Source: Minisyncoccota bacterium (GTDB lineage: Bacteria; Patescibacteriota; Minisyncoccia; Phycocordibacterales; JBBDKB01). Taken from it: DNA of 34,372 bases. Under the pieces are notes generated by a model that had not been told where the DNA came from, searched no databases, and worked only from the letters and a program-made list of their open reading frames with translations. Of this stretch, positions 4,505 to 34,372 are shown one piece after another. Both the position numbers and the translations under genes were made by a program. The stretch spans positions 6,821 to 41,192 of the forward strand of contig JBBDKB010000030.1 in the NCBI GenBank assembly GCA_040879605.1, in the 5' to 3' direction. Each line of letters begins with the position of its first letter. Position 1 is the stretch's first letter.

Positions 4505-4858
4505 CTACACCAGTTCAATTCTAGCTTCTTTACGCGCGTCAGCCTTTGTACTTTGAAGTTTAAGAATCCGAGTATATCCTCCAGCTCTCGCTTTGTAGCG
4601 TGGACCAATGGTTTCAAAAAGCTTTCGAACAACACTCGGATCGCCGTTGAACTCCTCTGAAATATTTCGTCTCGCCGCTACGCCGTCAGTTCTGCTCTTT
4701 GTGATAAGCTTTTCCACATACGGACGCACTTCCTTTGCCTTGGCTTCAGTTGTGACGATACCCTCCTGAAGAATGAGCGAGCGAGCGAGCGAGCGCAAGA
4801 GTGCTGTTCTCTGCTTCTTCACTCTTCCAAGTGTTCTTTGTGCTTTATGATGCTTCAT
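4505..4858 (-). CDS. rplQ: 50S ribosomal protein L17
   Basis: MKHHKAQRTLGR, IVTTEAKAKEVR and RAGGYTRILK. Start reassigned to ATG at 4858 (the ORF track start at 4885 is upstream of the conserved N-terminus). Confidence 0.97.
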   Translation of the reverse strand: MKHHKAQRTLGRVKKQRTALLRSLARSLILQEGIVTTEAKAKEVRPYVEKLITKSRTDGVAARRNISEEFNGDPSVVRKLFETIGPRYKARAGGYTRILKLQSTKADARKEARIELV

Positions 4859-5103
4859 CTTAGTTTTGCTTCTCGAACATAGCAAAGCGGAGTGAGATTA
4901 GCAAACCTTAGATCCCGCCGTACTTTTGCGTTTGACGTTACTTTGCGCAATGCGTCTTCCGAATAGGCAGATACTTCTTTAGGCGAAGCGCTGCGCCCCA
5001 GAAGGGAGGGGGCTATTCGCCCCTCGCGCTTCGCAGAATATATGTTCTGCAAAAGTACAGCAGGGTAAGTTCGCACAACTGTATTTGACTTCGCGTTGTT
5101 CAT
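4859..5103 (-). ncRNA. Putative structured intergenic RNA element, copy A (rpoA-rplQ spacer)
   Basis: 16-bp stem 4914-4929/5049-5064 whose two irregular pairs are G-U only on the transcribed strand. Shares ordered motifs with the rpsM-rpsK spacer. Confidence 0.6.
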
Positions 5104-5120
5104 AAAATACAGGTGCTTAC

Positions 5121-6074
5121 TTACTTTAGCGTTACGCCGAAATTAGAAAGTGCTCGTTTGATTTCTTGAAGGCCTTTTGTACCAAGTCCTTCAATTCCAA
5201 GTAAGTCTTCTTCGCGTTTTCGCACAAGGCCACCGACAGTTCGTATACCTCCTGTGGCGAGAGCATTTACAGTACGAGAGGAGAGATCAAGGGTTTCAAT
5301 CCGAGTTTTAAGGAACTCTGTGTCATCTTGCGGTTCAACTGACTCGTCCTTTTTGTCTTCTTTCTCTTCAACTTTAACAGATTCCTCTTCCTTAAACCCG
5401 ATAACAGCTTTCAGCTGATGAATCATTGTTTCAATGGAGCGCTCAAGTGCTTCACGCGGGGTGAGCGTTCCGTCTGTTTCAATAATAATGCGAAGTCGAT
5501 TGAAATCTGTTCTATCTCCAACACGCATATTTTCAACTTCATAATTTACCCGACGGATAGGTGTAAAAGCCGCATCAAGAGCGATTGAGCCTGCGTCAAG
5601 ACGCTCTTCCTGGTGTACCTCCCGCGGCACGTAGCCAAGCCCTTTCTCAACACGCATTTCAATATCAATGTCAGTTTTTCCAGTTACTTCCGCTATCGGC
5701 TGCTCGGGATTTAGAACTTTAAGAGAACCACCGGCTTCAATGTCTGCCGCGGTTATGTTCTTTGGCCCTTTCACTTTGAGCGGTATGGTCTGTGGCTCCT
5801 CGGAGAGCATTTGGAAACGCACCCGCTTAAGATTGAGGAGGAGCGTGATGACGTCTTCCTTCACACCCTCAATGGTTGAAAATTCATGCCCCACCCCATC
5901 AATTTTTACAGATGTAATCGCCGCTCCGGGGAGAGAAGAGAGAATGATTCTACGAAGGGAGTTGCCAAGAGTATGTCCATAGCCGGGGTAGAGACCGTCA
6001 ATCTCATAAACACCAGAGAACTCCTCCTCTTTTACGATGCGTGGCTTTGATGGCAAGGTAACGTTATATTCCAT
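5121..6074 (-). CDS. rpoA: RNA polymerase subunit alpha
   Basis: GYGHTLGNSLRRIILSSLPG, HEFSTIEGVKED, and alpha-CTD LDLSSRTVNAL. Confidence 0.99.
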   Translation of the reverse strand: MEYNVTLPSKPRIVKEEEFSGVYEIDGLYPGYGHTLGNSLRRIILSSLPGAAITSVKIDGVGHEFSTIEGVKEDVITLLLNLKRVRFQMLSEEPQTIPLKVKGPKNITAADIEAGGSLKVLNPEQPIAEVTGKTDIDIEMRVEKGLGYVPREVHQEERLDAGSIALDAAFTPIRRVNYEVENMRVGDRTDFNRLRIIIETDGTLTPREALERSIETMIHQLKAVIGFKEEESVKVEEKEDKKDESVEPQDDTEFLKTRIETLDLSSRTVNALATGGIRTVGGLVRKREEDLLGIEGLGTKGLQEIKRALSNFGVTLK

Positions 6075-6088
6075 AAAATTGAAATTAG

Positions 6089-6700
6089 TTATTTGTTATA
6101 AAACTCAACAACGCCTCCGAGATCTTGATTCGTCTCGGTATTTTCTTTTGTCGGCTCTCCGATGACTTCCGCGGAGAGTTTTGTTTCATCAAATGAAAGC
6201 CACTTAGGCGGCGTGTACCCTTTCATACGCTCTTTAAACGCCTCGGAAAACGGTCCCTTCTCCTTGCTCCCATCACGCACAGCAATCACATCTCCCTTTC
6301 GCACTTGATGCGAAGGGATTGTCATTCTCCTTCCATTGACTGTGAGGTGCCCGTGGGATGTAAGCTGGCGCGCAAGACCTCTGGTATGCGCCAACCCGAG
6401 GCGATACGCCACATTGTCAAGCCGACTCTCAAGACGCTTCAGGAGTTCTTGTGCGGGCTCCCTTGCAGAAGTCGCTTCGGTTACGTAGCGGGCAAATTGC
6501 TTCTCGCTTATGCCATACGTGTAGCGAACTCGCTGTTTCTCAAGAAGCTGCTTTCCGTAATCAGAAGGCGCGCGAGGACGTCTCCCGGTTCGCTGCTTGC
6601 CGCCACGTGCTTCAGCAAGCGCAAACTTTTGTGTCTGGCACTTCTCAAACACGCTGCTTCCAAGTCTTTTACAAATTTTGAATTTTGACTTTACTATCAT
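6089..6700 (-). CDS. rpsD: 30S ribosomal protein S4
   Basis: SDYGKQLLEKQ, LESRLDNVAYRLG and ARQLTSHGH motifs. Confidence 0.98.
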   Translation of the reverse strand: MIVKSKFKICKRLGSSVFEKCQTQKFALAEARGGKQRTGRRPRAPSDYGKQLLEKQRVRYTYGISEKQFARYVTEATSAREPAQELLKRLESRLDNVAYRLGLAHTRGLARQLTSHGHLTVNGRRMTIPSHQVRKGDVIAVRDGSKEKGPFSEAFKERMKGYTPPKWLSFDETKLSAEVIGEPTKENTETNQDLGGVVEFYNK

Positions 6701-6705
6701 AATTG

Positions 6706-7140
6706 TTATACGCGACGTGCTTTAGGCGGTCGTGGTCCATTGTGCGGTACCGGTGTTCTGTCTTGGATTGAATTAATTGAAATACCCTTTGTCGCAAATG
6801 CTCGAATGGAAGATTCTCGTCCTGACCCCACTCCGCGAACAACCACATCAACTTCCTTAACCCCAATTGCTGCCGCCTTTTCTCCAATTAGCTCCCCGAC
6901 CTTTGCAGCCGCAAAAGGTGTTCCTTTCTTTGCTCCTTTGAAACCAAGGGAGCCGCTTGATGAGCGCATGAATGAGTTCCCAGCTTTATCTGTGAGCTGA
7001 ACCGCAGTGTTGTTGTAAGTAGCTTGAATGAAGAGAATCCCCACATCAAGCTTCCTTTTTGGAAGACGCGCAAGAGAGCGAGATTTGAGTCCCGCATCAA
7101 CGCTTCCACTTCCTTTTTTTACGATTCGTTTCTTACCCAT
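6706..7140 (-). CDS. rpsK: 30S ribosomal protein S11
   Basis: ATYNNT, GFKGAKKGTPFAA and DRTPVPHNGPRPPKARRV motifs. Confidence 0.99.
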   Translation of the reverse strand: MGKKRIVKKGSGSVDAGLKSRSLARLPKRKLDVGILFIQATYNNTAVQLTDKAGNSFMRSSSGSLGFKGAKKGTPFAAAKVGELIGEKAAAIGVKEVDVVVRGVGSGRESSIRAFATKGISINSIQDRTPVPHNGPRPPKARRV

Positions 7141-7330
7141 CTTAGATTAACTTAGCGAGTCCCCGCTGGTGACGAGATTAGTGATTCTTAGACCCCGCCC
7201 TCTATGCCCGTTTGAGAGCGTATCCGTGGCTTCTGCTTGATTCAGTAGTTTCTTTTCTGTTTGGTATCTCATAGCTCGCGCTTAGAGGGCGGGGTAAACA
7301 AAATCTAGTTCACTCCGCTCACAAGATTTT
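7141..7330 (-). ncRNA. Putative structured intergenic RNA element, copy B (rpsM-rpsK spacer)
   Basis: Perfect 13-bp stem 7192-7204/7283-7295; same ordered motifs and spacing as copy A. Confidence 0.6.
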
Positions 7331-7333
7331 GTA

Positions 7334-7711
7334 TTACTTCTTCTCAACTTTCTTCTTTCCTGAGCCCATTGTCTTTTTCGATCCCTTTAGAGTTCTGGCG
7401 TTTGTTTTTGTTCTCTGTCCACGAACAGGAAGACGCTTTGAGTGTCGCGAGCCACGATACGCCGCGATGTCTTTCAATCTCTTAATATTTCCAGAAACCT
7501 CTCTCTTTAGCTCACCTTCAATTTTTTCATTCTCAACCGCAGTTCTAATTTTTACCTCTTCATCAGCGGTGAGTTCACTGGGCTTCTTCGTGCTTTCAAT
7601 ACTAGCCTCCAAAAGAAGAGCTCTGGCTTTTGAACGTCCGATCCCATACACGGAAGTAAGCGCAAACTCAAGGCGCTTCTGCTCCGGTAATGTAATTCCT
7701 GCGATTCTCAT
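7334..7711 (-). CDS. rpsM: 30S ribosomal protein S13
   Basis: MRIAGITLP, ALTSVYGIG and RLPVRGQRTKTNART. Start reassigned to ATG at 7711 because the longer ORF overlaps rpmJ. Confidence 0.98.
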   Translation of the reverse strand: MRIAGITLPEQKRLEFALTSVYGIGRSKARALLLEASIESTKKPSELTADEEVKIRTAVENEKIEGELKREVSGNIKRLKDIAAYRGSRHSKRLPVRGQRTKTNARTLKGSKKTMGSGKKKVEKK

Positions 7712-8243: not shown

Positions 8244-8273
8244 ATCGTACCAGAAAATAAGCCATTTAGTCAA
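8244..8273 (-). promoter_or_regulatory. Putative sigma70 promoter of the infA...rpsI operon
   Basis: Minus strand TTGACT-18 nt-TACGAT with an extended -10 TGG, 13 nt before the infA ATG. Confidence 0.6.
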
Positions 8274-15660: not shown

Positions 15661-15698
15661 AAAACATTCTATTATTCTGCAGAATAATAGAATGTTTT
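15661..15698. repeat. Perfect 38-bp palindrome (ATTCTGCAGAAT core family)
   Basis: AAAACATTCTATTATTCTG|CAGAATAATAGAATGTTTT. Confidence 0.95.
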
Positions 15699-15767
15699 TA
15701 TTTTATCTTGATTCAATATATCTGCCTCACTCTTTATTCTTGCCACTGTTCTTTTTAAAACCGTTTG

Positions 15768-27562: not shown

Positions 27563-27594
27563 CTATTCCGTAATTCTGCAGAACATTGGAGTAG
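27563..27594. repeat. Degenerate copy of the ATTCTGCAGAAT palindrome family
   Basis: CTATTCCGTAATTCTG|CAGAACATTGGAGTAG; 11 of 16 positions symmetric. Confidence 0.7.
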
Positions 27595-30182: not shown

Positions 30183-30222
30183 TCCCTTATTCCAATATTC
30201 TGCAGAATATTGGAATAAGGGA
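30183..30222. repeat. Perfect 40-bp palindrome (ATTCTGCAGAAT core family)
   Basis: TCCCTTATTCCAATATTCTG|CAGAATATTGGAATAAGGGA. Confidence 0.96.
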
Positions 30223-30240
30223 CCTGTGGTTTCCCACTTC

Positions 30241-32977: not shown

Positions 32978-33009
32978 ACATTCCAATATTCTGCAGAATA
33001 TTGGAATGT
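32978..33009. repeat. Perfect 32-bp palindrome (ATTCTGCAGAAT core family) filling the atpA-atpG spacer
   Basis: ACATTCCAATATTCTG|CAGAATATTGGAATGT. Confidence 0.96.
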
Positions 33010-33010
33010 T

Positions 33011-34372
33011 TTACTTTTGACTTTGCGTGGTGGTGTTTGCAAACAATTCTGGATGCGTCGCCTGAAAGGCTTCCAACGCTCCCCGAAGTTTCTTTTCTGT
33101 CCCATCTTCAATTTTTTTTGTCTTTCGAATTGACTCGGCAATCTCTGGATACTCCCGCTCCATATAATGCAGGAGCCTCACTTCCGCTTCTTCAATTTTC
33201 TCAACCGGAACATTTCTAAAGTACTCGTTGACTGCCGCAAAAATGACAAGCACCTGCCGCTCAAACGCCATCGGCTGATTTTTGTTTTGTTTTAGAATCT
33301 CTGTGAGACGTTGCCCTGATTCAATGCGCCGCTTTGTATCAGGATCCAAGTCGGACGCAAACTGCATGAAGGCTTCAAGCTCGCGGAACTGTGCAAGCTC
33401 AAGACGAATTTTTCCAGCGACAGCCTTCATCGCCTTTGTCTGTGCTGAAGAGCCAACACGAGAAACCGAGAGCCCTACGTCAATCGCAGGCTTCAGGTTC
33501 TTGTTGAAAAGATCAGTATCAAGATAAATTTGTCCATCGGTAATGGAAATAACGTTCGTTGGAATGTAGGCAGAGACATCTCCCTCTTGCGTCTCAATAA
33601 TTGGAAGTGCGGTGAGTGACCCGCCACCTTTTTCATCACTAAGCTTCGCCGCTCGCTCAAGAAGACGCGAATGTAAGTAGAAAATATCCCCTGGGTAGGC
33701 TTCGCGCCCTGGTGGACGCCGCAAAAGAAGTGAGAGCTGACGATAAGCAACCGCGTGCTTTGAGAGGTCGTCATAAATAATAAGCGCATCCTTTCCCTTC
33801 TCCATAAAGTACTCTCCAATCGCGGCTCCTGCATACGGAGCCAAGAATTGAAGTGCCGCAGGAGCACTTGCCGGAGCATCAACAACAATTGTGTACTCCA
33901 TTGCACCGCGCTCTTTTAGCTCTGCGACAATACGAGCTGTTTTCGATTCCTTCTGTCCTATTGCAACATAAATACAAATCGGACGAGTCGCTTCTGGCTC
34001 ATTTTTCTGATTCAAGATTGTGTCTGTTGCAATTGTTGTTTTCCCTGTGAAGCGATCACCAATAATAAGCTCGCGCTGTCCTCGCCCGATCGGGATCATA
34101 GAGTCAATCGCCTTCAAGCCTATATGTAGCGGAGTATCGACAGATTTTCTGTCAATCACACCGTATGCTTCGCGCTCAACAGGGTAGCGAGTTGTAGAAG
34201 TAATTTTCCCCTTTCCGTCGATGGCTTCACCAAGCGGCGAGAGCACTCTCCCAATAAGTTCTTCTCCAACAGGAATTGAGAGCACTTCATTAGTCCGCTT
34301 TACAAGCGTGCCTTCAGATACCTCCTCGGCTCCTCCAAGAATCACTGCGCGCACCACATCCTCTTCAAGGTT
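33011..34372 (-). CDS. atpA: ATP synthase F1 alpha subunit (5' end outside the window)
   Basis: [29 protein letters not shown] and [13 protein letters not shown]; the frame is open to the window edge. Confidence 0.99.

Follow-up and report, generated by a model that had tools for sequence, protein, structure and literature searches.

The stretch of DNA considered here (34,372 nucleotides (nt), hereafter the window) belongs to contig JBBDKB010000030.1 of a Minisyncoccota bacterium (assembly GCA_040879605.1; class Minisyncoccia, order Phycocordibacterales). It harbours, all on the minus strand, infA, rpmJ, rpsM, rpsK, rpsD, rpoA, rplQ, rplM and rpsI in this order, with one spacer between rpsM and rpsK (spacer B) and another between rpoA and rplQ (spacer A). 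The two spacers are members of an undescribed multi-copy family of nested-hairpin leaders, which terminates precisely at the start codons of housekeeping genes, among them those for ribosomal proteins, NusA and NusG, in one class of bacteria with tiny genomes (0.4–1.2 Mb in the order and class), and which probably gives those genes a shared control point.

A preliminary description, made from the sequence of the window alone, had reported that the spacers measure 262 and 193 nt and carry the same motifs, spacings and stems, and this observation is confirmed at every coordinate. The 262 nt spacer extends from the end of rpoA at 5121 to the rplQ ATG (4858–4856), and the 193 nt spacer from the end of rpsM at 7334 to the rpsK ATG (7140–7138). 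The 26-nt pattern GGCGGGRTCTAAG-N5-CTAATCTC occurs exactly twice in the window, at 4894–4919 and 7174–7199 (minus strand), and not once in 100 dinucleotide shuffles. GTTTGA lies at 4930 in A and 7210 in B, CTCGCGCTT at 5023 and 7275, respectively, and the gap to the final CTAAG-ATG is N30 and N28 in the two spacers. The central stems pair as proposed (5049–5065 with 4914–4929 in A; 7283–7295 with 7193–7204 in B), and both irregular pairs of copy A are U-G on the sense strand. Both spacers fold better than their shuffles, with z-scores of −4.65 for A, equalled by none of 200 shuffles, and −2.70 for B, equalled by 2 of 200. No sigma-70-like promoter or intrinsic terminator is predicted in either of them. 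Just 5′ of infA, a TTGACT-N18-TACGAT sequence with an upstream TG (8244–8273, minus strand) is a likely promoter of the unit that holds B and A.

A nested-hairpin family in one genome

With up to three mismatches, the 26-nt pattern has four matches in the source genome (G000; 597,565 base pairs (bp) in 31 contigs, 92 % complete), against none for a reversed control, and the two added matches lie at the rplN–rplX and rpsL–rpsG junctions. A search with an nhmmer profile of the 3′ tails, followed by one with a covariance model (R1) built from seven copies, recovers 15 copies and one degenerate copy in these 597 kb; within the window, R1 returns A and B only. Copies are found 5′ of ribosomal-protein genes (rplQ, rpsK, rplX, rpsG, rpsS, rpsL, rpsH and rpmI), of the transcription-factor genes nusA and nusG, and of a secD/F-like gene, a VirB4-like gene and a membrane-protein gene. 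A further copy resides in a ribosomal RNA (rRNA) leader, between a TTGACC-N17-TATACT promoter and the 16S gene, and one orphan copy is without a gene. What had been taken for a pair of alpha-operon elements is thus a 15-copy family spread over many genes, and a dedicated S4, S11, S13 or L17 leader is excluded by the range of genes preceded, which amounts to at least 50 Pfam families across the sampled genomes.

The proposal of a real, structured and homologous motif family without an Rfam match is, by contrast, supported. Using cmscan with Rfam 15, there are no matches at the gathering score across the whole window, and at E ≤ 5 only chance matches to microRNAs and small nucleolar RNAs (loci L001–L004) appear, away from the elements. 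No description of the element was found in the literature searched, the coverage of which was partial and excluded supplements. Copies within a genome are diverged from one another, with a best pairwise identity of 0.77 in the source genome and medians of 0.43–0.63; the highest within-genome identity elsewhere is 0.87 (G122 and G070). As the copies have diverged and yet retain their helices and apex, the helices are being maintained.

Two hairpins make up the core of the element. P1 is a 17-bp helix in which the outer end (ACCCCGC/GCGGGGU) and the inner end (UUUUGC/GCAAAA) are conserved, with a freely variable middle. Its tip carries anything from a 3 nt loop, as in the rpsL copy (87 nt in total), to about 200 nt, and minimal loops of 3–4 nt are seen for rpsL in the source genome and for gyrB and rpsL in G018. 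The P2 hairpin starts 0–1 nt 3′ of P1 and has an apex of the form UC-GC-UUC-GC-UC followed by AUUAAG, which includes the heptamer GCUUCGC. The 3′ arm reaches the A of the ATG or stops 1–2 nt short of it, and in many relatives it takes in AUG or AUG-GCA, as seen 5′ of rplK, nusG and tuf in other genomes of the class. The distance from apex to ATG is fixed at 17–22 nt, counted from GCUC.

In about a third of copies the insert at the tip of P1 is a 63-nt module, consisting of a 9-bp helix (P3), the invariant heptamer GCUUCGC, a purine-rich strand, and a helix of 4–6 bp (P4) bearing the pentaloop UAUUC. Amongst the 78 copies that can be oriented by a downstream gene, 50 are without the module, single modules are sense to the gene in 20 of 21 copies, and seven further copies contain inverted dimers. 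Copies A, C (rplX), E (nusA) and F (rpsS) have an insert of ‘type 1’, which is such an inverted dimer, and the insert of copy B is unrelated to the module. Certain conserved positions are strand-specific and non-complementary, namely the UC/UC flanks of the apex, the UAUUC loop and the GCUUCGC heptamer. A number of elements are double-tailed: on one side a start-type P2 faces the gene, and on the other lies a second P2 type.

Within the window, element A occupies 4856–5069 of the minus strand, comprising P1, an inverted module dimer, P2 and the rplQ ATG (R1 match of 161.6 bits, E = 3e-38). The 5′ arm of its P1 (5049–5065) pairs with the 3′ arm (4914–4929) in the minimum free energy (MFE) fold, the 3′ arm being further placed by sequence and R1 pair counts. 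The 5′ half of the dimer is a second module copy on the opposite, plus strand (4979–5043; 51.9 bits with the module model R2, E = 7.6e-13), and the sense module, with P3, GCUUCGC and P4 with its UAUUC pentaloop, follows at 4937–5000 (57.3 bits with R2; module alignment and pair counts). P2 spans 4858–4912, its last paired base being the A of the rplQ ATG, as indicated by a match of 32.8 bits to the P2 model R3 (4856–4925) and by the RNAalifold tail helix. The gene fed by element A, rplQ (L17), lies at 4505–4858 in the list of open reading frames (ORFs) and has the Pfam domain Ribosomal_L17, which is found in 2 of the 76 downstream ORFs considered below. Element B extends over 7138–7298 (minus strand; R1 match of 44.2 bits, E = 4e-9) and consists of P1, its unrelated insert, P2 and the rpsK ATG. 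Its P1 arms are at 7283–7295 (5′) and 7193–7204 (3′), the latter assigned from sequence and fold, and P2 (7140–7192; R3 match 7138–7205, 33.4 bits) ends at the A of the ATG of rpsK (S11), the gene fed by element B (6706–7140; ORF list and Pfam Ribosomal_S11).

Start codons, gene set and taxonomic range

Across 93 sources, R1 identifies 100 non-overlapping places. In 76 of these a distinct same-strand ORF of at least 45 amino acids starts within a few nt of the 3′ end of the model, and the N-termini of these ORFs look native. Random orientation, which the preliminary description had held would point to a DNA repeat, is not what is found; rather, orientation toward the gene is nearly absolute, with the 3′ end at a start codon in those 76 places. 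The other 24 either lack P2 or possess a second kind of P2 that has the same apex, other arms and no ATG. Pfam analysis of the 76 ORFs gives NusA and L24 (five each), L6 (four), Fpg and YebC (three each) and L14, L17, S12, L11, S18, L10, NusG, SSB and FtsX (two each), followed by many singletons. Outside the listed Pfam output, others of these ORFs are presumably GyrB, UvrA, SecY, RecR, RpoC and FtsK, as judged by their N-terminal sequences. The genes preceded span translation, transcription, repair and secretion, with no metabolic theme. Other genomes are occupied at the junctions of the window as well, G251 (listed simply as ‘same class’) at rpsK and G145 at rplQ.

The absence of a Shine–Dalgarno (SD) sequence before both ATGs had been pointed out in the preliminary description. 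However, of 480 long ORFs in the source genome only 4.2 % have GGAGG in the 20 nt upstream (0.8 % in a background window), and the 16S 3′ tails of three of three relatives (G108, G046 and G018; L105, L107 and L109) are without the CCUCC anti-SD core. Many Parcubacteria have likewise been reported to lack the anti-SD motif (PMC9297842). As starts without SD are the rule in this genome, they are not a mark of the element. By eye, neither the P2 arms nor the apex showed complementarity to the 16S 3′ tails of the same three relatives; the 16S 3′ end of the source genome is missing from its assembly. In these three genomes a terminator-like hairpin and protein genes lie 3′ of the 16S gene, so that 16S and 23S seem unlinked. 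With regard to transcription, the evident promoters of the source genome are canonical (TTGACA or TTGACC with TATACT or TACTAT) and lie upstream of elements; since such promoters precede the nusA and rpsS copies, those copies sit in 5′ untranslated regions.

The relatives examined are all at family distance or beyond, kin are not independent, and the numbers of copies per genome in the order, class and phylum samples are lower bounds (16 candidates were scored per genome in the order sample). R1 has matches in 11 of 40 relatives (each from another family within the order) and in 40 of 150 other genomes of the order, with at least 12 matches in the richest. Of 150 other genomes from the class, 30 contain a match to the module model R2, as does 1 of 150 genomes sampled phylum-wide. 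Outside these groups there is almost none. Its history is clearest at nusA, where most genomes have a leader in which a promoter is followed by a conserved, attenuator-like hairpin bearing a U-run and a short A-rich spacer then leads to the ATG, and where in the source genome the element is placed between the U-run and the ATG. From this insertion, and from the varying occupancy of the nusA leader given below, it follows that the element has been added to older leaders, and gained or lost many times. It always ends at the start codon. The conserved nusA hairpin itself is GUUCGCC-loop-GGCGGAC (upstream regions of 30 genomes, L124–L153; G000 C17:~7340–7470), and in the nusA leader of G079 (L126) a unit of about 84 nt with P2 is tandemly duplicated directly 5′ of the gene.

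Pairing and compensatory change

Conservation of the helices was assessed on three alignments, R1, R2 and R3. Because they were fitted to models, and so lean toward the model structure, a slid control is a fairer comparison. The R1 alignment contains 148 distinct rows, including opposite-strand echoes of the same helices. In it, 92.9 % of P1 is paired and 16 of its 17 pairs show two-sided changes, and the 12 pairs of the tail helices are about 92 % paired with two-sided changes at all 12. The whole-structure covariation score is 0.386, compared with 0.103 for shuffled alignments (0 of 500 reach the observed value) and at most 0.066 for slid ones. For the module (R2; 50 distinct rows), paired cells make up 88.9 %, and the score of 0.598 compares with 0.192 for shuffled and at most 0.134 for slid alignments. 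Within P2 (R3; 63 distinct rows), pairing reaches 90.7 % in the main helix (helix 2) and 85 % in the apex helix of 2 bp, the latter with eight changes of GC to AU and ten of CG to UA. The outermost helix is 47.7 % paired and poorly aligned because its register differs between subfamilies. The covariation check amongst homologues thus finds compensatory changes well above both shuffled and slid controls in P1, P2 and the module alike.

A possible shared control point and its rivals

Of the four functions suggested in the preliminary description, a start-codon-linked initiation element and a small mobile element are the two that stay alive, and the single ribosomal-protein leader does not. The two spacers may well be copies of a leader cassette that is transcribed, acts in cis, occludes the start codon and is recognised by a single common factor, although this preference is a tentative one, in which transcription through the element, the occlusion of initiation and the factor are all things that we infer. 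In such a cassette, P1 would close off the variable insert and thereby loop it out of the mRNA. P2 would pair the 10–15 nt before the start codon, often together with the A, the AUG, or the AUG and the next codon, with an upstream anti-start arm, and would serve as a translational operator whose conserved apex is presented to a single trans-acting factor. A common P2 structure would thus lie over the start regions of about a dozen ribosomal-protein, NusA, NusG and other housekeeping genes, and the GCUUCGC of the 63-nt module could be a second site for the same factor. The outcome would be coordinated control of translation initiation for core expression genes.

The best nameable candidate for the factor is NusB–S10, because the 3′ half of the P2 apex resembles boxA; together with the start of the 3′ arm its common form is GCUCAUUAAGA, which matches the boxA consensus GYTCTTTAANA at 10 of 11 positions. 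This consensus was derived by Baniulyte et al. 2017, who sought it within 50 nt of start codons, and in that work (PMC5725501) the Nus complex represses suhB primarily by inhibition of translation, some 25 % of the functions of boxA-associated genes are translation-related, and Nus-factor genes are also enriched. The gene set here (NusA, NusG, ribosomal proteins and an rRNA leader) fits the same lead, and NusB is encoded in the source genome. BoxA-like stretches can be read in four rRNA leaders (GCUCUUUGACAA, GUUCUUUGAAAU, GACUUUGAAAAC and UUUCUUCAAAACAA); P2 resembles these four without being identical to them, no co-variation with them was seen, and the boxA-like stretch is partly base-paired inside P2. 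That NusB–S10 reads P2 is a doubtful lead only. A fuller version, in which one portable RNA operator (a start-codon hairpin having a GCUUCGC/boxA-like apex, with the 63-nt module as its second site) has been copied before many ribosomal-protein, NusA and NusG genes and free NusB–S10, or another single ribosome-linked protein, titrates between nascent rRNA and these mRNAs, would be rather improbable. Two observations touch on these genes and leaders. One strand carries both the RNase III gene (rnc) and nusB, with about 550 bp between them (G000 C11:20040–21381). In the rRNA leader of G108 (L104), a minimal P1-like hairpin, CCCCGCAC-GGG-UGCGGGG, is situated just 5′ of a boxB-like hairpin and a boxA-like stretch, such that P1-type stems also occur in rRNA leaders without the rest of the element.

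A number of results weigh against a start-codon operator. Foremost is the strand test. The preliminary description had argued from the U-G pairs of copy A for a structure at the RNA level, an argument that fails across the family, as in the 78 gene-oriented copies G-U cells are not more frequent than A-C cells (27 versus 46 in P1, 11 versus 14 in P2 and 23 versus 34 in the module). Helices selected as RNA normally tolerate G-U far better than A-C, and the result is therefore unusual. Equal rates fit DNA-level quasi-palindrome correction, or recent mutation in strictly Watson–Crick stems; with no G-U excess the palindromes might thus be kept up at the DNA level, the apparent covariation may in part be a DNA phenomenon, and the G-U result is the main unexplained point. 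P2 is, moreover, of moderate stability (mean MFE of −10.1 versus −7.6 kcal/mol for shuffles), and of 76 copies folded as single sequences, 38 have the A of the AUG paired and 15 the whole AUG. No ATG is present at the 3′ end in 23 of the 100 places, including the orphan and rRNA-leader copies, the module of the rRNA-leader copy is antisense to the rRNA, and the second P2-like hairpin of double-tailed copies points away from any gene. At nusA the element is an insertion into an older leader, and P2 abuts this gene in only 5 of 29 other genomes (E < 1e-3), with one additional weak match. As for boxA, position 5 of the motif is a variable column in P2 (A, C or G), compared with U in the consensus and in four of four rRNA-leader stretches; the most conserved feature, GCUUCGC, is common to the module and is not boxA; and Rho was not found in the 92 %-complete assembly.

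Several of these points would be expected of a palindromic DNA repeat, similar to transposable elements of the miniature inverted-repeat kind (MITEs) or to ERIC, Correia or REPIN sequences, which spreads or is copied as DNA, in which template switching between the arms preserves self-complementarity and which is tolerated, without any dedicated regulatory role, wherever it is harmless. The element possesses terminal inverted repeats, in the form of the 17-bp P1 arms and, for some copies, outer hairpins, and nests further ones within its module dimers and double-tailed copies. Its distribution is patchy, the genes occupied differ between genomes (nusA in 5–6 of 29), the nusA copy is inserted relative to the ancestral leader, orphan, degenerate and tandemly duplicated (G079) copies exist, and the lack of any G-U excess agrees with upkeep as DNA. 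Random insertion should, however, generate both orientations and variable distances, not the near-absolute polarity observed, and would leave the conserved strand-specific, non-complementary positions unaccounted for. There are also no near-identical copies in the source genome, G122 or G070, a target-site duplication was not seen by eye, TnpB was not found, the two Y1-transposase-like genes of the source genome have unrelated palindromes of their own, and fifteen copies sit at essential genes of a 0.6-Mb genome. Such a repeat is unlikely, whilst carrying more weight than any other rival. The readings are not fully exclusive, as both the polarity and the G-U result would be accommodated by a repeat that spread as DNA and was taken on as an operator.

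The remaining rivals each account for a part of the element. In a processing or stabilising cassette, RNase III would cut the P1 duplex of 17–20 bp, excise the insert, split the polycistronic mRNA and leave P2 as a protective 5′ hairpin. P1 is long and almost fully Watson–Crick with conserved ends, the enzyme is encoded close to nusB on the same contig, copies lie inside operons and in an rRNA leader, the usual place of RNase III stems, and variable inserts on a conserved stem tip resemble rRNA intervening sequences. This leaves the conserved P2 apex, the module and the exact contact with the start codon unexplained, and copies with loops of 3–4 nt have nothing to excise, making the idea improbable. 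A riboswitch-like arrangement, with the P1-closed module as aptamer for a small ligand and P2 as expression platform, would suit the conserved unpaired nucleotides and two covarying helices of a module directly upstream of a start-codon hairpin. Membership of that class was rejected, since no conserved aptamer is present in all members (50 of 78 lack the module) and the gene set is not metabolically coherent. Modules also occur as inverted dimers and antisense to rRNA, and a switch by alternative pairing of an extended P1 with P2 is unsupported (a mean of 2.60 continuing pairs, versus 2.70 for permuted partners and 2.53 for shuffled flanks), which renders a riboswitch very unlikely. Least probable of all, and about equally so, are an upstream ORF and a portable promoter. 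In the former, a leader peptide would be translated through the P1 3′ arm and P2, with a stop at the main AUG and reinitiation by the ribosome downstream. Six copies of the source genome do have ATG frames whose ends fall in the interval from 9 nt before the first base of the main ATG to 4 nt past it (53–84 codons before rpsG, nusG, rpsH, the secD/F-like and the VirB4-like gene; 41 codons in copy B). As a general feature this was rejected, as an ATG frame of at least 30 codons ending near the main ATG exists in just 17 of 77 ATG-bearing copies, conserved nucleotides fall in frames that vary from copy to copy, module types do not share a conserved frame, P4 shifts by 2 nt in length between copies, copies A and C lose the common frame, and minimal copies are without an ORF. 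A promoter inside P2 that starts leaderless transcripts at the AUG would explain the fixed apex-to-ATG distance, as expected of a −10 box before a leaderless start, and would sit well with the rarity of SD use. The conserved positions are nevertheless rich in G+C, and the T that closes a −10 hexamer is missing from them; the canonical promoters are found upstream of the elements, none is predicted in either spacer, and covariation of the stems would be needless.

Comparison with known systems and significance

The MS2 coat-protein operator and the thrS operator are hairpins that hold the initiation region and show a loop to the controlling protein, and both are operators of a single gene. P2 is similar to these in being a start-codon hairpin with a conserved loop, and unlike them it recurs before at least a dozen genes of each genome that are unrelated to one another, and is joined to a second long helix. 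Ribosomal-protein leaders in Rfam, such as the alpha-operon S4 leader, are likewise structured RNAs before ribosomal-protein genes, but no family matches the element, in which one motif serves many ribosomal-protein and non-ribosomal genes. Repeats of the ERIC, Correia, BOX and REP types also lie inside transcription units and fold as RNA hairpins. The element shares with these families, which include CREE and REPIN and have been reviewed (PMC3184786, PMC3733652), a multi-copy and patchy occurrence, a size of 90–290 nt, nested inverted repeats and variable inserts. It differs from them in its fixed gene orientation and exact start-codon contact, in copies that are old and diverged with no recent burst, and in that no cognate transposase flanked by the element was found and no target duplication seen. 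Leaders with boxA, such as the suhB 5′ untranslated region, resemble it as short conserved RNA elements at most 50 nt 5′ of the start codon, placed before translation-related and Nus-factor genes (PMC5725501). They have no counterpart of P1, the module or GCUUCGC, and number 0–7 putative sites per genome in that source, compared with 15 copies here.

Other repeats and mobile sequences were noted in passing. A second palindromic family, ATTCYAWTATTCTGCAGAATAWTRGAAT, has seven copies in the genome, four of them in the window (15664–15709, 27564–27593, 30187–30232 and 32978–33023), and appears terminator-like because a T-rich run follows two of these four. Y1-transposase-like (PF01797) frames of 228–240 amino acids occur at G000 C30:50774–51493, about 10 kb past the end of the window, and at C11:25991–26674. 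Each is flanked not by the element but by its own, different palindrome of 22–25 bp, that of the C30 gene being found only beside that gene; they look like IS200 or REP-associated tyrosine transposase (RAYT) genes unrelated to the element, and a RAYT-linked REP/REPIN identity for the latter was rejected. In G093, the 3′ part of the 16S gene (L111, C1:426700–427535) is interrupted by an insert with an open frame, in which we take there to be a LAGLIDADG-like motif.

Gene regulation in these uncultivated, reduced bacteria is almost unknown, and the element, placed at the start codons of core genes for translation and transcription and recurring across the class, accounts for about 0.5 % of a genome of 0.6 Mb. 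Should it be an operator, a regulon is thereby defined, together with a means of controlling initiation without SD pairing. Were titration of NusB–S10 by one such operator true, this would be a case of ribosomal feedback control that spreads like a mobile element, in a class largely without SD pairing. If it is instead a self-maintaining palindromic repeat, strong ‘covariation’ can arise without selection at the RNA level, which calls for caution in pipelines for the discovery of structured RNAs. Either way, the three covariance models provide an annotation handle for hundreds of unannotated spacers.

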